DNA from: Psammoneis japonica
Taxonomy: Eukaryota
Reading direction: 5' to 3'
NCBI GenBank assembly: GCA_008632985.1
Contig: QPGO01000057.1
Location: 372,001 to 403,213 of the forward strand
DNA: 31,213 nt
Part shown: one piece after another, positions 3,791 through 29,899 of the stretch
Position numbering within the stretch: the stretch's first letter is position 1
Layout: every line of letters starts with the position of its first letter
Program-made: the position numbers and the translations under genes
Notes under the pieces: generated by a model
Told to the model about the DNA's origin: nothing
What the model saw: only the letters and a program-made list of their open reading frames with translations
The model's database searches: none

Positions 3791-4122
3791 ATAATGAGCG
3801 ACGAGTTCCGTGGGGGGGGGGGGGGGGGGGCGGAGTCCTCGTTGGGCATGGTGAATGCTGCACCTCTGCTTTGATAGAAACTTCTGTTTCCACTAGTATT
3901 ATCATTCTCGACGCGTTCATCCTCTTCGTTTTGTATTCAGTGACAGCATGGATTCGTGGTACCGTAGTGATCATCATCATCATTATAGAAGACGGCATAG
4001 CCCACAACCAAACCAAGCAGCACGCTCATCAAAACCGCAACGGAGAAGGTCATGGATACCAACAATAAAATGTAACAGAAAAGGCCTGAAGTGTGTGCAA
4101 TAGTGCAAAGAATATTCTTCAT
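3790..4122 (-). pseudogene. Ctr-family copper transporter C-terminal fragment
   Basis: YILLLVSMTFSVAVLMSVLLGLVVGYAVF resembles Ctr TM2/TM3 (MxxxM degenerate to LxxxM; GxxxG intact), followed by TTNPCCH. The TGA at 3937-3939 is in frame with a continuing acidic tail (IQNEEDERVEND...MPNEDSAPPPP). No intact N-terminal half is visible. Confidence 0.55.
3812..3830 (+). repeat. G19 homopolymer
   Basis: Read directly; encodes poly-Pro on the minus strand. Confidence 0.9.
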
Positions 4123-5135: not shown

Positions 5136-5255
5136 TTAAACTGCTGTAGCTAGTACCTGCATCTTGTCACTGTTTAGTCGGCGTGGATTTAGATTCAAGT
5201 TTTGTAATTCAGCATCATTTTCCAACAGACGCATACAGAGATCGTGGAGCCATGG
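5136..5255 (-). pseudogene. RNI-like leucine-rich-repeat N-terminal fragment
   Basis: Hand translation PWLHDLCMRLLENDAELQNLNLNPRRLNSDKMQVLATAV* resembles the L..ND..L..L.L start of RNI-like LRR proteins; short and stop-terminated. Confidence 0.3.
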
Positions 5256-5590
5256 ATGGGTGGAGCGGAATCTAACATGCGCGTTGGTATGAGTCTGTAG
5301 GACCAGAATAACACGCGTTTCCGCCTACAAAACAATCTCAAGTGCTTTCCACAAGCTAGTTTCTTTATTCATACAAAATACAATAGAGCTTGAGTTTAAT
5401 GCCTCTTCTGTTCTTCTCCTTGCCGGTGTTGCGAAAAATTGAAAATGATTAATGATCTTGGGCGTTCGCATGAGGCTCAGAACCTGGTGTTCACCGATGC
5501 TTCGCGCGATATATCACTCCCCATCGTTCGTGAAGCACTTGATACACGTTGGTACGCCTTGGTACGCTTGTCCACGGAACACTAAGTATG

Positions 5591-6558
5591 TATGGAAACC
5601 GTTCAGTCACTGGCCGGCCGACGCGGAATTTGTACGGGAATGACCGAAGCGTCAGCTGAGGTCATCGGAACCGGTCACGAAGCCGGCAGGCTGAGTACCG
5701 GTTCTCCCGTACAAATTCCACGGAGGCCGGAGCGGCCGAACCTGAGGGTGCGCTGAGGCGGAGGTCCCCGACGCCGAAGCGCACCCGAAGGTGAGGACGC
5801 GTCCACGTGACTGACCGGTTTCCATAGGAACCTATCAGTTAGAGGACTGACGCAACACAGAGACCAACAAAATACATTAATATGGATCTCTATTGAGTGA
5901 TCCTGGTGATGTATTTTTGTTGTGGGACCGCTGGAAGACGCCATGGTCGAAGGTGAGGCCTCTCGATCGCGGTGTCGTTTCGTGGGTTTGCTTTTTTATC
6001 TATATTATTAATACATATAGATGTATATTTATTTTAATTAGGCGGTTCCGTTTATATGTTTATTCATTTATATATGCTTTTTCACAGTCAGTATCGGTTT
6101 GTGGCATTCAAACACGATTGAACTCTGCGACGTCACATACCAGAGACCTACACAACATTGTCGTAGCCAGCATGTGCAGGAACCACCGTTGGGTCGAGAG
6201 CACTTTTTGAATTTCAATACCAGACAACATGTAGATTTCTACGAGCCAGAAATGACCCTCCAGTGCCATATCATGTGCATCGCTCACTCCGGGAACGCGA
6301 CGGCCGGTTCCCGGAACGCTGGTATATGCCTACGTGGCTCTACGTCGGGAATCGGCCGAATTTGTCAAAATCGCCTGCGCTGGTTCCGACGGTTGGAATG
6401 AGACAAAATTCAAATATTGGTTCCCAACCGTGTACCAAGTTCCCACGTAGCTTCTACACAACCGCCAAAATAGTCTCGGTCATAATGACTCGAGTTTCCA
6501 TACACAGTCTACACAGCGCTACGAAGAACAATGTCAGTCCGATAACTGATAGGTTCCT
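5591..6558 (+). other. Large branched fold-back element (structured ssDNA or RNA) with tandem G.A mismatches; function unknown
   Basis: Stems: 5591-5610/5807-5826 (19/20 bp), 5614-5639/5705-5730, hairpin ears 5640-5665 and 5668-5704, arm 5732-5800, and long-range stem 5826-5851/6533-6558. Eight internal mismatches are tandem GA/GA. Confidence refers to the pairing, not to a function. Confidence 0.85.
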
Positions 6559-6759
6559 GAAGTACACCCTGTCTACGCAGTGTCCCGTTTGTCCACAGGT
6601 GAAAAAAAAAAGATTCAAAGCAAAACGATGGAGAGTACAGTGTGGCTCGAGGACCGAAACAGACCTCGCCGACAGAGAGCTCACGACTGTTGCTTGCTTG
6701 TTGGCTGGCTGGTGCTGTTTCTGGCTAGAGCTACGGTGCTCTACCCTACAACTGTGAAG

Positions 6760-7500
6760 TGTGAGTTGAAAGGAATGCATTAGACTGGCATTTTGTTGGA
6801 AGCCTCACAATGGATCATTGCTCGATCAAACGGCCAAGGTCAGAGGCGGCCACGACAATGATGAAGTCAAATTGGTTGACAAGCATTTGTGGCAGCAGGA
6901 AATGCAAACAATGACAGGGTCAAACTGGCACTGCTGGACAGAAAAAAAGAGTTCAAGCTCATGACTGTGCTGTTTGTCACAAAGGGCTCGGTTCAATTCG
7001 GAGTTTCTTTTGCAAGGCGAGTCTCTTTTCCTCTTGTGTTGTCACATGTGCAACCAAAAAGGAGGGGTGCACCATTGTCATGCACCAAACAGTGCTTCGG
7101 CAGCTGAGTTGTGCAGTGTCTGGTGCAACAATTTCTTTTAGAAGGAGAGTTTTTCCTTGTTGTCAGATGTGTGTGACAAAAGGAGAGAAGCACCATGATT
7201 GTCATGCAAACAGTGGATCAGCCATCTGAGTTGTGTGGTGTCTGATGCAACAAAAGGCAAAAGAGACAGAAGCAGCCAAAACTCAAAAAAACATGCAGCA
7301 GGCACCTGAGTTAAAGCTCTTCCAAAAACAAGAGGCTGCACCACAAAACAAAACATTGCAAATCTGTGACCATTGGAAAAATTGGCTGCTGTCAAGCTGA
7401 GTGATGACTTTGGCAATGTCAGATTTGTGACCAAAAATGAGTTGGTGGCAAAACACAATTGTTCAGAATTTAAATGGTGGTGACCACATCAGTTGATTTT
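6760..7500. mobile_element. TpA-depleted, partly CpG-depleted degenerate repeat block 1
   Basis: Only a few TpA, in TTAG/TTAA contexts (6780, 7138, 7311, 7471); TG/CA-rich; flanks have normal composition. Confidence 0.6.
6825..7033 (+). mobile_element. Possible CryptonF-type tyrosine recombinase relic
   Basis: Reads DQTAKVRGGHDNDEVKLVDKHLWQQ...RARFNSEFLLQGESLFL. Reverting CAC/CAT to TAC/TAT and CAA to CGA gives GGYDNDEVKLVDKYLW...LRGESLF, resembling the recalled GY...YFW...LRGES catalytic-Arg region of Crypton/Ndc10-like YRs. Short and degenerate. Confidence 0.35.
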
Positions 7501-7592
7501 TGAAAAACCGTCACACCTGTGTGGAGTGTGCATCGCAGGTGTAAAAATTTCATTTCTTGTTCTTGTTGATCTTGGCGGGCGGGCGGGCGGCG

Positions 7593-7918
7593 CGGCACCA
7601 GTGCTCACATCAGGAGCACAGGCGCTTGTACAGCATCGCATTGTGTCAAAACACGGCGCAGCGCGCAGTTGGGCGCAGCACCAGTGCTCACATCAGGAGC
7701 ACAGGCCATCATGCATTCAGATTTATAATGTCCTGAAGATTGCAAAAGACAGTGCCATTACCCAACCTTTTCAGAATTGATTAAAAATATAAAAGCCATC
7801 ATAGATTCAAGAATTATATTTGCTTGTATACGTATTTTGTGTCAAAACAGACACCGCGCAGTTGGGAGCGCAGCACCAGTGCTCACATTAGGAGCACAGG
7901 CGCTTGCACAGCATCGCA
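7593..7918 (+). repeat. Three copies of a ~30-80 bp unit containing a GTGCTC-N7-GAGCAC hairpin
   Basis: GCACCAGTGCTCACAT(C/T)AGGAGCACAGG at ~7595, ~7678 and ~7873; copies also share TTGTGTCAAAACA and GCGCTTG(T/C)ACAGCATCGCA. Confidence 0.85.
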
Positions 7919-7989
7919 GTGAGATCTTTGGCAAACCATACACTGGTTTTAGAGGTAGTTGAGCCTTTGTGTAAACAAGTCTGCCCACT

Positions 7990-8800
7990 CTGCACCCTGC
8001 ACCAGCATTCCGAAAACAACGAGACTACACCCTTTTGGAGACACCGCAAGTTTCGCATCATCGCCGTCATACTCACCGCCGTCGTGGCGATTGTGATTGT
8101 AGTTGTCGTCATTTTAATGGGTAATACTAATCCCAAAGCTCACTTTGTTCCCGTTGATCCACCCGGCAAGGAAGAAGCGGGTCGTTGGGATGCCACGTTG
8201 GGATTGCGTTTGCGTGTCGTAAATGCGTGCAGTGACGGCTAATGGACGGCTCTGTTTGATGCTTCCCTCAGTGATTGGAACTCAAGTCCATCGCTGCAAT
8301 TGACACTGATGCGTTCAACACAGGATCTGGGTTGTCAACCGGAAATGAAATGACTCAAGGTTTGCAGTGGCAATTATGGCAATACCGGTTGGCTGTTAAG
8401 ACGAGAAGTCATTGTGTGGAGCACGGCGCGACTCAATGAAGATCAATACATTAATACTGTGCTGAGTCTTTGTTTTGTTGTTTGTGTATTGTTGCTATTG
8501 GGGTGGTATATTTTGGTGCTTGTTTGGCGAAGTGTTGGCATTCTTTCGTCTCTCAAAACGCGCACCTCTCCCATCTACTCTTACTCGATAATCCATCCAT
8601 TTGTAATGTTGTTTGTAGGTGCCACGAACTTTGTCACGGATTTGGTTTGCCGCATCATTCCGACGAAAATCATTTCAACATTAACCGAGGGGATTGCATG
8701 GATTACACAACCCGGCCCCGTTCCAACAAGCTGCCGGGACTGCACAATTTTCATCCCCCCGACGAGCCACTTGTGTTTGGTAGTTCCGCCACTGACGTGA
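7990..8800 (+). pseudogene. Type II membrane zinc metallopeptidase (metzincin-like HExxHxxGxxH), disrupted
   Basis: N-terminal TM (IIAVILTAVVAIVIVVVVILM), then LRLRVVNA, LKVCSGNYGNTGW, ARLNE and CHELCHGFGLPH...GDCMDYT; in-frame stops at ~8240 and ~8351 and frame changes. Confidence 0.7.
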
Positions 8801-17938: not shown

Positions 17939-18024
17939 GCGGACCGGCTTCATTGCTGTTGTTTTTGAACTTGTGGTGGTTGCGGACCGGCTTCGTTGCC
18001 ATTGTTTTTGAACTTGTGGTGGTT
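17939..18024 (+). repeat. 43-bp tandem duplication
   Basis: GCGGACCGGCTTCATTGCTGTTGTTTTTGAACTTGTGGTGGTT followed by GCGGACCGGCTTCGTTGCCATTGTTTTTGAACTTGTGGTGGTT. Confidence 0.9.
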
Positions 18025-18330
18025 GCATCTCAAGTTCCAGCAGTGCACATTCTGTGTGCGATTCCACATGGCTCTTGAGGGGAACCCGGAATGTTGTTGT
18101 CAAAGAAGAAGTCTCTCTCTCGAACTCTGTGACATTTTCTCTGCAAATAATGTAGCAACATGCGCCGCAACTCCCAACTTTTGAGGCGAGGCGCATCAGG
18201 AAGAATCCACCATTGTCGTGTTGTGAAGCCGCGCTTGATCGCGCTAGGCCAAAAAACTCGCGGCGCGCGGCCGACGGGCCGACGGCAATGGCATCGCGCA
18301 AACAAAAAAAAAATCTCAAAAACAGTCAAG

Positions 18331-18932: not shown

Positions 18933-19498
18933 GTCTCGTACAATTGCACATAGGGGTGTATAAATGAAGAATATCATTAGCACTGATGGAGAGCTGTGAA
19001 ATGGTTCTGCCTAGCAACGCCGCTGGCAGGTTGTTCCAATGCCCATAACCGACCATACGCTACATGCGATAGTGTAGGTAAAGCAATCGACCAAGGCGTC
19101 CCATTCACGGTGGCTTGAGTTATTGCTCTATTGTATCGTAGTAAGCCTTTCTCCGTCTGGCGCGATTCCTTTTCAGACGTTCGTCCCCCCCCCCCCCCTC
19201 CGAGATATATCAAGGCAAAGAAACACGAGCTGGACGCAAAGCTGTTACTTGTATCGAGCCTTGATATCTAATCGTCCTTGTTGCATCCAGGCTCGATGCA
19301 TGTGACAGCTTTACGTGCTGCTCGTGCTTCCTGGCCTTGAGATAGCCGTATAGCATCTTCAACATGAACCAGCTCCATGCAAATGTGCACCTTCCCCTCG
19401 TTGAATTTCTCCCTTCGTCTGTTCAAATAGAAATCAAAATCTGAAAAAGGGTGCGTTGTTGTTATAACTCAGGAAGATGGAATCAAACCGTCAGCTTT

Positions 19499-23027: not shown

Positions 23028-23923
23028 CAAGTGGTTGTTGCGGCACAAGGTTTGGTGCTTGGCAGACCGCTTAGCGTGAGTGTTGTGTATCACGCACTCT
23101 GAAGAGTATTGAAGCGGGGCCGTTGTGCACTGCAAGGATTACCACACTATAGCTGGAGTTGAATGCCATTACTGGTTGGCTAGAAAAGAATGCGCGGGGC
23201 AAACTAGGCTACTGTGAAAACCAGAGCTGACGTGACTGTCGCATGTGGACGTATCAAAAATCGAACGGAAAGAAATGAGCAGAGCAAACATATGCAACGA
23301 CATCGCAAGCGCTACGACCTCCCTCGTAGCATTGACGTACGTACGGAATGAATAACACACCAATAAAGACTGCTATGCTGTACTTTTAGAGTCTTTCTAA
23401 TCTTTTGGAATAGTTTCAAAGCATTCTTTGAAACACGCCAATATCAAAAGTTGATAGAAATCGGTCGCGTAGGATAGCATTGCCTCAAGAGCGCCATCAG
23501 AAGATGGAGCTCAAGCTTTTTCCTAGTTTCGGAGTGGAAATCCATCCAAAAAAAAAGAAAAAGGGGGGACGTACTACGGAGACGACAAGTAAACTTGCGA
23601 GTCAACCGCGTGCTAAATCAACACTCCCTACGAGTGAAGACTTACCGTACCACGTCACTGGTACGACGGAACCCCAAACCCCGCGTTCCGTCAACGGTAT
23701 GATCTGCTTGGCGAGCTTTTGCTGCCTCGCAGACGAACGCTGCTGTCTGTTTCAACAGCCGTGACCTGACAGGTCAAGCGAACAGGCAACTTCCTACGGT
23801 CAAAGACACAGGAGTAACATGGACTCCAGGCCGGAGACACGCATTCGATTTGCCCCGACCTCCGGACTTAACTGGCAACACCTACGCCGCCGATTGAGAC
23901 AACACGCCATCAAGCAAAATGAT

Positions 23924-24200
23924 TTGCGGAATACCAAACAAGAGCGAGCAATCTATTCCAGAGGAAGGGGGAGCCATCCTCGGCGATCGCGGCATTCGTT
24001 GCTTGGCAAACAACAAACACATCGTGCGAGACGACGAGTTGAAAAAAGAGAGACAACACTTCGTGCAAGCACAATGAGTTGTGGAACACCAAACAAGAGC
24101 TAGCTCTCTATTATCCGCAAGAAGGGCGAGCCATCCTGGGCGATCGCGGCAATCGTTGCTTGGCGAACAACAACACATCGTGCGAGACGACGAGTTGTGA
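23924..24200 (+). repeat. Tandem duplication, period ~155 bp
   Basis: TTGCGGAATACCAAACAAGAGC...GAGCCATCCT.GGCGATCGCGGCA.TCGTTGCTTGGC...CACATCGTGCGAGACGACGAGTTG at 23924 and 24079. Confidence 0.85.
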
Positions 24201-27079: not shown

Positions 27080-28130
27080 GGCCACCCACAAACTTCTCAA
27101 GTTTGTTGGAGCACAGCACAGAAAAGCTGTCAACAAAGACGGCCCTGCAAAGGACAGCCCCAAGGACAAAACAGCAGGCAAAACAGGATCTAACATCACG
27201 GATGGGAAAAGTGACTGAATCAGAAAAAGCTCCAGGAGCTGGGCATGCCAAAGAGTCCTCACAAATGGGCATGTGCTGTCATTGTGGAGATGACCAAACC
27301 TGGCACACAAAACCAGCTCCTGGCTCAAGGCAGGAGGCTGCATTTCAAACAACAAACACATGCTCAGCTTGAACTCTGCTCACATTCTTGCTTCAACTTG
27401 ACAAGAGAAAGGCCCTCAACTCATGCACAGGGCAATGCCTCTGAAAGTTTGCAATGTGGCGGGGATGATCAAGAGCACCAAGAAAGGCAGAGTGTGTGCC
27501 ACAGCACCCTCAGTGCCGTGATGTGCCACATGCACCTGACAGGCAATCAAAATGCAAAATGCACCGCAAAAGTGCTGTTGTGAAAATCATGAGCCACATC
27601 TGGTGGGGCAATGATCTGGGAATGTGTGTGCACACATGCTTGACATTCTTGTCCGTCATGCCAATTTTTTTTGTTTTCATTTTAAAAAATTCTGTCATGC
27701 AGTGTGAGATTTTTTCATGCTTTCCAACAACTTAAGGGCTGGCTGGAGATGATGTAAAGGAAATCAACAAGTGCACACCTCCAGGTCATCATCATCACAA
27801 AGAAAGAAACAACCAACAAAGATGATGAGGAGCCTGGCATCAATGGCTGCCCAGACTTCTCAAGTTTGTTGGAGATCTGCACAGAAGCCACCACCACTGA
27901 TGGCCCTGCAAAGGAGGGCCTCTGCCAGATGAAGTGGTGGGTGAAATGGGGTCTGATGTCAAGGATGGGAAAGTGGCTGAATCAGAAAAAAAAGCTCCAG
28001 CAGCCAGATGCCAAAGAGCCTTTGGAAGGGCATGCTCTGATTGTGGAGCTGGCTGAACCCAGTGCACAACTCAATTCCCAGCTCAACACAGGAGGCTGCA
28101 TTTCAAACAATGAACACTTGCTTGGCTTAA
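27080..28130 (+). repeat. Two diverged ~280-bp copies (~27085-27360 and ~27850-28120)
   Basis: Shared anchors in the same order: ACTTCTCAAGTTTGTTGGAG, GGCCCTGCAAAGGA, GGATGGGAAA, CTGAATCAGAAAAA, ATGCCAAAGAG, ATTGTGGAG and CAGGAGGCTGCATTTCAAACAA. Confidence 0.85.
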
Positions 28131-29899
28131 ATTCTGAGAGAAAGACCTTTGTCTTGTGCATGGCACAACATCTCCAAAAGTCCACCATGGCAGTGATTGA
28201 GGTCGCCAGGAGAAAAGGCAGGGCATGCCGTGACACCCTCAATTTGACCCAGGTCTTTGCACTTTGCACACCTCCTCAAAGTTGGCCTTGAGTGTTCCCA
28301 ACTTTCCAAGAAAGCCCCTTCTGCAAGTGAGCAACTGGGGTTCCATTGGCCCATTGGTGGAGCACCTCAAGCAAATGACGAACATGCAAGGCTCTGTCAT
28401 TGCCCCCAGCAGCTGAGATTGCTTGAGGGTGTTGTCACCTGCAGAGACTGACTGAGTGTCTTGTTGCCATCTGTCTGACCAGCAATGTCACCCAGCTCAA
28501 AAAAGTGTTCCAGCATTGTGGGCAATGATGCATCCCTGATGAAAAGAAGCAACACGACAGCCAAGAAAAATTGTGAGAGCAATGCCGCCGCCAGCATCAT
28601 CAGCCCTTTCTGTGCCAAAGTGTCTTTGAGTGAGGCCTGCTCCAGTGCTCCAGGTGATGTGCACAGGCTTGTTTCCTGCTGCTAGCCCATTTTTGCATTT
28701 GGTGCAACAAACTCCTTCAAAGTTGATTTTTTTCCAAATCGAAGGGTGGGTGTGCACAAAACATTTGTTTTTTGTGTGTTCTCACCTTTCGATCTTTGAA
28801 ATGATCAAATTTGAAGAAGTTCAATGTGCTGGGCTGCACAGAGAATTGAGCTCTTGCATGATGGATTGCCAATCACCTGGGGCCAGAACATGCTGTGTGC
28901 AAGGACAGAGGCTGGGCATTCTTTGTTCTCTTGTGTGTTGCGCAAATGAAGATTGTGTGCGCGGGGCTGAGGGATTTCAGCGCTTGTTGGTGATCTTGTT
29001 TGGAGCAGGGAAGCTGCAGTGTGAGCATTGCCCCCGCCTCTCTTGAAAGGGTTCCTCCACACCATCATCGATGTGCTTCCAAGCTCTCAATTCAAAGTGG
29101 TCAACGGATGTGGCATGGCCGCACCAGCTCATCATTGTGCCAGCCATTTGTGTGGTGCTCAACGTTTCCCCCTCCTCCTCGCTTTTGCATCGAGAGAACA
29201 TTTTTCGAGTGCACCAACACTCCCTGCCCAATCGACTGGATTGACAGATTGGCGATTGCGTGGGGGCGCATGCAGTCACCGCTTCCCCCGTCCTCGCTTT
29301 CGCATCGACAACAACAGTCGTCGAGCGCACCAACACACCCCGCCCAATGCAATTTCATTCAGCACATTCAACATGCGCAGCAGATGTTGATTGACCAGCG
29401 ATTGCGTGCGGGCGCATGACACACACGTCACACTGTGGAGGTAGACGGAAAGAACACAACCCTGGGGTGCAACTGCGTAGGGTCTAGCACTTCTTCTACA
29501 GGGTCACCAGGAAAGCACAGACACCGACTTCCGCTACATCAACCTGCAGCACCCTCCAAGATGCGCAGCTGCGAAGACAACCAAAAAAGAAAACGATCGC
29601 GACAATGGCCTCCCTTGCGTCGCTGACATCTGTGTCTATTTTTTGCCGCATTTTCCCGTTTCTTTTCGCAGCATTCGGAGCTTTTATGCAAGTGATGTGA
29701 TGGGCCAGTGGTGCTGGCGTTGAGTTCAATCCGTCGAGGCGGATTTGTCGCTGAAGGTGCAGTGCAGAAATTGTGAGAATGCAGCATCAACATGACGGAT
29801 TTTTGTGATGTGCTGTTGCATCTTTGGTGTTGTTTCTCACTTCTTGTCATTGTTTTGATGCATGTGCCACAAGGTGTCCACAGGGCTTGGGTTTTCATG

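Follow-up and report, generated by a model that had tools for sequence, protein, structure and literature searches.

A 31,213-nucleotide stretch of the diatom Psammoneis japonica (assembly GCA_008632985.1, contig QPGO01000057.1, positions 372,001–403,213 of the forward strand; hereafter the window, numbered from its first letter) carries a branched fold-back at nt 5591–5826 of the + strand, at one end of a repeated insertion of about 968 nt (nt 5589–6556, + strand). The fold is real, non-random and strand-specific, and all of its tandem mismatches are of one kind, GA opposite GA. The reading favoured here, held at about even confidence, is that the fold-back is the 5′-terminal signal of a non-autonomous diatom transposon of about 968 nt that moves via single-stranded DNA (ssDNA). 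The inserted element is non-coding and multi-copy, as judged from contig joints and from the lack of any Pfam match in the open reading frames (ORFs) that overlap it.

The fold-back and its G.A tandems

Folding and an inventory of loops divide the fold-back into a closing stem, a Y-shaped domain with two ears, and a long arm. The arms of the closing stem (a, nt 5591–5610; a′, nt 5807–5826) form a 20-nt repeat with 95% complementarity. The Y-shaped domain (nt 5614–5730) is made up of a stem with one GA/GA loop, ear 1 (nt 5640–5665, apex GCGTCAGC) and ear 2 (nt 5668–5704, apex CCGGCAGG). The long arm (nt 5732–5800), also detected by repeat finding, has four GA/GA loops, a TCC loop and the heptamer CCGAAGG at nt 5785–5791. 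The seven GA/GA tandems lie at nt 5620–21/5723–24, 5646–47/5658–59, 5679–80/5693–94, 5738–39/5793–94, 5744–45/5787–88, 5755–56/5776–77 and 5761–62/5770–71. The GC content of the fold-back is 62–73%.

All 92 base pairs are Watson–Crick pairs, with no G-T, and each of the seven 2×2 internal loops is GA/GA, five in the form CGAA/TGAG and two as CGAC/GGAG. The other interruptions are 1×1 mismatches (T.C, C.A and G.A) and two single-base bulges, and the hairpin loops read c[GTCA]g, c[GGCA]g and g[TCC]c. The pyrimidine-GA-purine context is found on both strands in five of the seven tandems, and GARG is the + strand sequence at 10 of the 14 GA units. An earlier note on this DNA had described the same stems, ears, loops and mismatches, with seven tandems of the type CGAN opposite N′GAG, five of them CGAA/TGAG, and had argued that the structure is specific to one strand and did not arise by random decay. 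The sequence and the loop inventory agree with this description throughout, and both arguments held up in the controls that follow, which include the shuffled sequences that the note had proposed.

Folded as DNA, the + strand of nt 5591–5826 reaches −90.1 kcal/mol, compared with −44.4 ± 3.5 kcal/mol for 200 dinucleotide shuffles (z −13.1), none of which was as stable, and the − strand reaches −88.0 kcal/mol (z −12.8). Among 300 dinucleotide shuffles of the 236 nt, the mean number of 2×2 loops per fold was 0.5 (maximum 3), and a GA/GA loop appeared in seven shuffles, at most once in each, against seven of seven in the native fold. A search of the 31-kb window for GA/GA with four complementary flanking bases on each side returned three sites, all within the fold; eleven other dinucleotides gave 0–5 sites each by the same criterion, none of them within it. 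Every GA/GA of the + strand is TC/TC on the − strand, and with RNA energy parameters, in which tandem G.A earns a bonus, the + strand comes out 14.6 kcal/mol more stable (−160.3 vs. −145.7 kcal/mol).

Random decay of an inverted duplication in the absence of any selected structure has in its favour that palindromes are common in repeats and that both strands fold about equally well by DNA parameters. It would have to produce GA/GA at eight of eight tandem mismatches (the eighth is described below), when no shuffle out of 300 gave more than one, and to leave no further GA/GA site in the window at the 4-bp flank criterion; its probability is practically negligible.

Tandems of the pyrimidine-GA-purine type form sheared pairs, and several consecutive blocks of them are stable in DNA hairpins, as set out in the accessible part of PMC10085684, which also cites Nakano et al. 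2002, a paper whose title names d(cGNNAg). A related rule for mini-hairpin DNA is given in the portion of a review that was available (PMC13037366): the sequence is GCGNNAGC or GCGNAGC, the stems are GC-GC or CC-GG only, and the loop is closed by G...A. According to the same source, d(GCGAAAGC), the GAAA version, melts at 76.5 °C compared with 39 °C for its RNA form, and mini-hairpin DNA is nuclease-resistant and poorly bound by single-strand binding protein (SSB). The sites at which it occurs include the priming sites of ssDNA phages (G4, St-1 and alpha3), ssiA (CCGAAGG) and the single-strand promoters of N4 (PMC13037366).

Both ear apices, GCGTCAGC at nt 5649–5656 and CCGGCAGG at nt 5683–5690, fit the mini-hairpin rule (GCGNNAGC, CCGNNAGG) with GC-GC or CC-GG stems. 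Their GTCA and GGCA loops are absent from the variants tabulated in the available part of the review (PMC13037366). The mini-hairpin octamers are not enriched in the window (25 vs. 33.7 expected), nor are the heptamers CCGAAGC and GCTGAGG, and only their placement in the fold is special. The lack of any G-T among the 92 pairs, together with the non-GNRA loops GTCA and GGCA, leans toward DNA, and the working form of the fold is probably ssDNA rather than RNA. The case for ssDNA, as put forward in the earlier note, is strengthened by the two apices that fit a DNA rule (PMC13037366, seen in part) and by the eighth GA/GA in a distant inverted repeat.

The heptamer CCGAAGG on the 3′ strand of the long arm (nt 5785–5791) is the mini-hairpin heptamer of ssiA and of the 5′ hairpins of Fusarium FoHeli1/2, and could form an alternative local hairpin once the long arm opens.

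Comparison of the whole window with Rfam 15 gave no match at the gathering threshold; the best scores were those of SNORD48 (12.3 bits, threshold 36) and Afu_513 (10.8 bits, threshold 48), with E-values of 6.5 and 8.8. Kink-turn RNA has a three-nucleotide bulge followed by tandem G.A and A.G pairs. This identity was rejected, the GA/GA loops of the fold all being symmetric 2×2 loops with no adjacent bulge, and inspection by eye found no CUGANGA...GAAA arrangement of the kind seen in hammerhead or other ribozyme cores.

A structured + strand RNA, such as a guide-RNA-like scaffold (TnpB/Fanzor), a small-RNA precursor or another non-coding RNA in which the G.A tandems serve as RNA motifs, is quite unlikely. 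Tandem sheared G.A pairs are stable in RNA too, the preference of the RNA parameters for the + strand is consistent with this explanation, and Fanzor genes are carried by Helitron2 and other transposons, as described in the accessible part of PMC3627910. The lack of an Rfam match, of kink-turn bulges and of any G-U-type pair among the 92 argues in the other direction. So do the GUCA and GGCA loops, which are not GNRA, and the octamers, which in the GAAA version are far less stable as RNA (39 °C vs. 76.5 °C; PMC13037366, seen in part), and the eighth GA/GA would demand a transcript of the whole element.

A repeated insertion and the predicted pairing of its ends

Copies and boundaries were followed in contigs from three runs of one sample, possibly the source of the assembly, placed on nt 5200–6900 at a likeness of at least 80%. 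Run X1 gave 258 such contigs, of which 64 were at least 99% alike to the window, 67 were 95–99% alike, 73 were 90–95% alike and 54 fell below 90%; 64 contigs cover the region only in part, and 17% continue into unlike sequence. Summed depth rises from about 50–150 left of nt 5485 to several hundred or more up to nt 6850, a quantity that is no copy number; read together with the range of identities, it suggests many diverged copies.

Among the joints listed, six contigs connect nt 5546–5588 directly to nt 6557–6574 and omit 968–1026 nt; three of the six break at nt 5588 and two resume at nt 6557. Wherever these contigs have letters between the two sides, the letters are a diverged version of the right flank of the window. 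The flanking repeat thus exists without the 968 nt, making nt 5589–6556 a discrete insertion. One diverged contig runs across nt 5614–5864 with 22 differences and 9 gap letters, so that the junction between the fold and the repeat that follows it (b, described below) is shared by another copy. These contigs support placing the fold at one end of a repeated insertion with the behaviour of a mobile element. The earlier note had named, among several options, a folded ssDNA at the end of a mobile element, and the contigs bear out the terminal position in a repeated insertion, while the single-stranded part is what we infer.

The sequence that hosts the element is another repeat, with its left flank at nt 5485–5588 (from depth and contig joints) and its right flank at nt 6557–6850 (from contig joints). 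This host repeat is itself multi-copy, and versions without the 968-nt insertion are found among the contigs of the source sample.

The element begins with TGTATGG... and ends with ...GGTTC (on the other strand, GAACC... and ...CATACA); it is bordered by the host bases A5588 and C6557. Its left end (TGTATGGAAACC) and the reverse complement of its right end (GAACCTATCAG) are only loosely alike. The flanks, ...CTAAGTA and CTGAAGTA..., are contiguous in the empty paralogues, where both AAGTA words are native. Flanks AAGTA and CTGAAG share no repeat, and so no target-site duplication is seen, within a comparison to diverged paralogues from one sample. AAGTA was considered as a 5-bp target duplication and rejected, as both AAGTA-like words already stand side by side in the empty paralogues.

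These boundaries bear on a more conventional explanation, in which a cut-and-paste (DDE) fold-back element or miniature inverted-repeat transposable element (MITE) carries a, a′, b and b′ as binding sites for a transposase acting on double-stranded DNA (dsDNA), with GA/GA as breaks in the palindrome or as GARG protein sites. It would account for a terminal-type inverted repeat of 26 nt (24 of 26 positions complementary) and for the resemblance of a to b, and the 10 of 14 GA units that read GARG fit a protein site. TA on both sides of the fold-back is as expected of a Tc1/mariner-type MITE, and a fold in which 92 of 92 pairs are Watson–Crick is what an inverted duplication at the DNA level would leave. 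This explanation is nonetheless improbable, given that no target-site duplication accompanies the 968-nt insertion, the empty paralogues being contiguous, and that the two ends of the element are not inverted copies of each other. None of the joints listed, four short of the full set, excises nt 5591–5826 alone, and the junction of the fold with b recurs in a diverged copy. Breaking a palindrome, moreover, requires neither the same dinucleotide eight times out of eight, mirrored in both arms, nor mini-hairpin caps. The fold by itself as a nested MITE was rejected: the TA...TA flanks fit, yet the junction is kept in the diverged copy and no listed joint removes only the fold.

The fold-back ends at nt 5826, and with this base begins an inverted repeat of 26 nt, b (nt 5826–5851). 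Its partner b′ (nt 6533–6558, + strand) is complementary at 24 of 26 positions, and a pattern search of the window gave two matches where none was expected. The only two mismatches between b and b′ are adjacent, GA (nt 5842–43) opposite GA (nt 6541–42), in the context AGAG/CGAT and with 681 nt between the repeats. By rough arithmetic, the chance that the two mismatches would be adjacent and of the GA/GA type is about 10^-3 to 10^-4. Repeat b′ carries a small internal palindrome of its own (TCAGT/ACTGA), and, by reading, the closing-stem arms a and a′ are similar to b (GGAA(A)CC..TCAGT..ACTG).

When nt 5589–6559 was folded, the + strand formed eight 2×2 loops, all GA/GA, and the eight of the − strand were all of the TC/TC type; the interior (nt 5852–6532) contributes no 2×2 loop to the element fold. 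The GA/GA between b and b′ is independent of the seven in the fold-back and points to a selected single-stranded species that would span the whole element, and in these predictions the entire + strand looks built for folding.

In the element fold, a′ (nt 5807–5826) runs directly into b (nt 5826–5851), giving a continuous 'splint' (nt 5807–5851, + strand) that pairs with a, at the 5′ end from T5591 on, and with b′, at the 3′ end as far as C6556. Only the unpaired G5827 separates the two helices, and the 5′ overhang is two bases, TG. Whether the 968-nt + strand is folded as a line or as a circle, a:a′ has a mean pairing probability of 0.97 and b:b′ one of 0.99. With a′ and b adjoining, the predicted fold sets the 5′ and 3′ termini side by side, and the splint may have a role in cutting and joining. 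The 5′-terminal 11-mer (TGTATGGAAAC, nt 5589–5599) has a perfect inverted copy at nt 6494–6504, 52 nt from the 3′ end; this pair, located by repeat finding, is a candidate asymmetric terminal inverted repeat (ATIR).

Variation among the copies was read from the best-supported 40 of 222 differences. Among these, A5634G in other copies would give a G-T pair, A5697G would give a T-G pair or re-pairing with the bulged C5676, and two contigs have lost 9 nt at the long-arm tip. No GA position is touched by any of the 40, a list too short to serve as a test of conservation.

Three further features were seen inside the element. An AT-rich tract (nt 5970–6119, GC 22–32% in the GC profile) lies 150–290 nt past the fold-back and could be an easily melted region. 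Two imperfect small hairpins, neither with a G.A tandem, lie at nt 5862–5920 (CAACAAAATACAT.../...ATGTATTTTTGTTG) and, beside the subterminal 11-mer, at nt 6478–6495 (TCGGTCAT/ATGACTCGA).

One-strand imperfect end hairpins without target duplication are a hallmark of elements mobilised by HUH/Rep enzymes, and a mechanism of this sort can be proposed for the transposon favoured here. The element would be copied or moved as ssDNA of the + strand of the window. Once freed, this strand would form the 236-nt branched hairpin, held by seven sheared tandem G.A mismatches and two mini-hairpin caps, and repeat b would then pair with b′ at the far end, the eighth G.A tandem included. The a′-b splint would thereby bring the 5′ and 3′ ends together in a nearly continuous helix, and a single-strand-specific transposase, most likely of HUH/Rep type, would recognise the folded form, cut it and join it into a circle. 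The G.A modules (the repeated CCGAAGC/GCTGAGG) may act as structure-specific marks, and may also protect the fold from single-strand binding proteins and nucleases. If the + strand is read as the 5′-to-3′ strand of the element, a rolling-circle enzyme would displace the very strand that G.A pairs stabilise. The HUH/Rep class of the enzyme is proposed by analogy: HUH nucleases cut only ssDNA, and in Helraiser the 3′ hairpin serves as terminator and the proposed product is an ssDNA circle (PMC4778049, in the part available).

A bolder version is tentative and carries a low probability: an undescribed eukaryotic ssDNA mobile element with a 'self-splinted' transferred strand, in which the G.A module would be a code for a possibly new HUH-type or other ssDNA transposase. 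The self-splinted form would consist of the G.A-zippered, mini-hairpin-capped, three-domain fold and a G.A-marked panhandle that keeps the ends together for cutting and circularisation.

Relationship to known mobile elements

The closest layout among described elements is that of Helitron2/HLE2. In the accessible part of PMC3627910, Helitron2 starts with a 5′ T and makes no target-site duplication; its 5′ ATIR, 0–2 bp from the end, folds into a 5′ hairpin, and its subterminal 3′ ATIR immediately precedes a hairpin. The short asymmetric or subterminal inverted repeats of HLE2 are 8–16 nt long, one lying 0–4 nt from the end and the other beside the terminal stem-loop (PMC3627910, seen in part; PMC4067079; PMC11417382), and the subterminal repeats of HINE/Helentron elements may be palindromic (PMC4067079). 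FoHeli3–5 start with TG..., have a hairpin only at the 5′ end and show no insertion preference; the 5′ hairpins of FoHeli1/2 have a GAA loop closed by CC/GG, which is CCGAAGG, and the joined ends of FoHeli1 have been amplified (PMC5148889). The Helitron superfamily has been annotated in a diatom genome (PMC7466962).

The order of parts on the + strand, with a stem-loop and left inverted repeat at one end and the right inverted repeat at the other, comes closest to the 'reverse' orientation of Helitron2/HLE2, for which the comparators are FoHeli3–5 of Fusarium, the proto-Helentron of Phytophthora and the non-autonomous HINE/DINE-1 derivatives. Like these, the element is a non-coding multi-copy derivative with a 5′ T and no target-site duplication, its partly palindromic inverted repeats recall the Helentrons of mites and Culex, and its 11-nt 5′-terminal sequence with a subterminal inverted copy resembles the ATIR pair of Helitron2. 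The inverted copy lies 52 nt from the end, compared with 20–30 nt in Helitron2/HLE2, and the eight tandem G.A mismatches have no counterpart in the Helitron2/HLE2 descriptions, as far as the available parts of those sources go. Members of Helitron2/HLE2 share their ends with an autonomous element that encodes RepHel, and no such partner is known for the element here. A Helitron-like affiliation is therefore suggested by likeness of layout; the A|C target, the oversized repeat and hairpin, and the lack of a known RepHel partner make the element HLE2-like in working and layout, and it is not filed as a member. The earlier note had recognised no known family in the fold-back, which agrees with the Rfam result (no match at the gathering score) but not with the layout, which resembles described Helitron2/HLE2 ends. 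The outline of the element would thus be of a known repeat-family kind, with a DNA architecture of G.A tandems that appears unusually elaborate by comparison.

Two other eukaryotic identities were rejected. A canonical Helitron (HLE1) has 5′-TC, 3′-CTRR, a 16–20-nt hairpin about 11 nt from the 3′ end, and inserts at A|T; the ends and flanks here differ. Replitrons have short direct repeats at or near both termini and a Y1 Rep transposase, and the study that described them detected none in diatoms (PMC10288648); reading both ends of the element revealed no direct repeat of at least 5 nt. A word search of the open-access literature found no description of transposon hairpins studded with G.A tandems, or of Helentron-type elements in diatoms.

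The IS200/IS605 and REP/RAYT systems, in which Y1 HUH transposases recognise imperfect subterminal hairpins of a single strand, share the imperfect one-strand end hairpins, the absence of target duplication and the ssDNA circle with abutted ends (accessible parts of PMC3627910 and PMC6006769). They differ in being prokaryotic, in having hairpins of about 20–40 nt at both ends and in lacking a terminal inverted repeat. We know of no Y1 HUH transposase of IS200/IS605 or REP/RAYT type in diatom nuclear genomes.

The single-strand origins (sso) of rolling-circle plasmids and of integrative and conjugative elements resemble the fold in being orientation-specific, multi-stem-loop, non-coding and a few hundred nucleotides long, and in being active only when single-stranded (PMC4595007, in the part available). 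They are bacterial and internal to the replicon rather than terminal, and tandem G.A arrays are not reported in the accessible part of that source (PMC4595007). The same ssDNA intermediate could be served by a fold that acts as a single-strand origin or priming signal (sso/ssi-like), or as a protective cap, and not as the site of joining by a transposase. Besides the traits just listed (PMC4595007, seen in part), mini-hairpins keep SSB off the priming sites of G4, St-1, alpha3 and ssiA (PMC13037366, seen in part), the fold is about 240 nt long and branched with the AT-rich tract 150–290 nt downstream, and the ssDNA circles of Helraiser are proposed to become dsDNA (PMC4778049, seen in part). 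A priming site has no need to lie exactly at the end of an element or to form one helix system with both termini, and the literature turned up no eukaryotic example in a transposon. As a replacement for a terminal signal a priming role is unlikely, although the two functions are compatible and not exclusive of each other. The natural mini-hairpin and sheared G.A sites on record are priming sites of phages and plasmids, N4 promoters, and centromeric or promoter repeats, compared with a 236-nt three-domain end of a eukaryotic transposon in the present case.

Parvoviruses have linear ssDNA genomes of 4–6 kb with hairpins at both ends and genes for an HUH Rep/NS1 protein and a capsid. Their terminal hairpins are T- or Y-shaped with 'ears' and are the substrate of the HUH nuclease. 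The fold shares with them a three-way junction and two small ears; it stands at the one hairpin end of an element with no rep or cap genes. The remnant of an integrated and multiplied ssDNA virus or satellite, either circular or with hairpin ends and having a parvovirus-like telomere or a CRESS-type origin, would fit this Y-shaped domain, as well as the unit length of about 1 kb and a single-strand-specific fold near an AT-rich tract. Such an origin is very improbable: no Rep, capsid or other recognisable gene occurs in the element and no such viral gene in the ORFs of the window, the hairpin is at one end only, and the element, itself lodged within another repeat, occurs as numerous dispersed and diverged copies. 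Three patterns (repeat b, the closing stem and a structure-only version of the long arm) had no match in 2.9 million viral contigs, and phage and plasmid records held no match to the 968-nt element. The structural pattern was likewise without a match in prokaryote genome contigs, and when metagenomes were scanned for an 18-base pattern taken from repeat b, the 11 loci returned all matched the 16–22-nt seed alone, as chance hits do.

Several observations weigh against a terminal signal of an ssDNA transposon. DNA nearest-neighbour parameters do not separate the strands, either for the fold-back (−90.1 kcal/mol for + and −88.0 kcal/mol for −) or for the whole element (−202.8 and −207.6 kcal/mol), and the 11-mer pair (nt 5589–5599 and 6494–6504) is unpaired in the equilibrium fold (P 0.0). 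A majority variant in other copies, T5825C (seven contigs), would open the second closing-stem pair if no change outside the variants listed compensates for it. The element boundaries are accurate only to about 2 nt, since the comparison is with diverged paralogues and not with true empty alleles, and a 2-bp TG/TG duplication is conceivable at this resolution; that reading requires each paralogue seen to deviate from it by 1 nt. At 26 nt, the inverted repeat exceeds the published 8–16 nt of Helitron2/HLE2, and the terminal hairpin is branched and 236 nt long against about 10–40 nt. The single insertion examined has A and C as its neighbours (on the other strand, G and T), unlike insertions of HLE2, at T|T or T|Y, or of Helitron1, at A|T. 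Pfam found no RepHel or other transposase in the 65 ORFs of the window. No second copy was found as sequence, beyond chance, in the viral, metagenome, prokaryote, phage and plasmid collections; the G.A pattern is nonetheless striking and carries testable predictions.

Direct evidence for the handling of single strands by eukaryotic rolling-circle-type transposons is scarce, and what end hairpins and asymmetric repeats do in Helitron2/HLE2 is described only by models. Here, the sequence itself appears to record selection on one folded strand, in the form of eight G.A tandems out of eight, one of them between repeats 681 nt apart, together with DNA-specific caps. If this is true across the copies, it would identify the travelling strand, show that base pairing unites both ends, and provide a compact substrate that could be synthesised to find and test the transposase. 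The fold would also be a natural example, from a eukaryotic nucleus, of a long DNA structure built of sheared G.A modules, and would add a characterised DNA transposon family to the diatoms, whose mobile elements are poorly described.

Other features of the window

A CDC20/Fizzy WD40 activator of the anaphase-promoting complex/cyclosome (APC/C) is encoded by an intron-free open frame at nt 143–2065 on the − strand. Its organism-named homologues are all from diatoms (Cylindrotheca, Thalassiosira, Cyclotella, Discostella, Nitzschia and Mayamaea), at 47–70% identity, so that no very close sequenced relative is among them. The other 64 ORFs of at least 110 aa in the window had no Pfam match, and the window has no tRNA gene.

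Local direct duplications, 73–100% alike by segment, lie at nt 23911–24197 (about 156 nt) and nt 27089–28136 (about 760 nt). These may be duplicated exons or repeats, and the ORFs that overlap them have no Pfam match. A run of 18 G (nt 3813–3832) and a run of 14 C (nt 19182–19201) are reported as an inverted pair, 15 kb apart. A 43-nt unit has two tandem copies at nt 17939–18026 (93% alike) and a weak third copy 9.9 kb away at nt 8071–8113. A 54-nt unit with a small hairpin (GTGCTC...GAGCAC) is present in three copies within nt 7590–7921, spaced by 83 and 195 nt.

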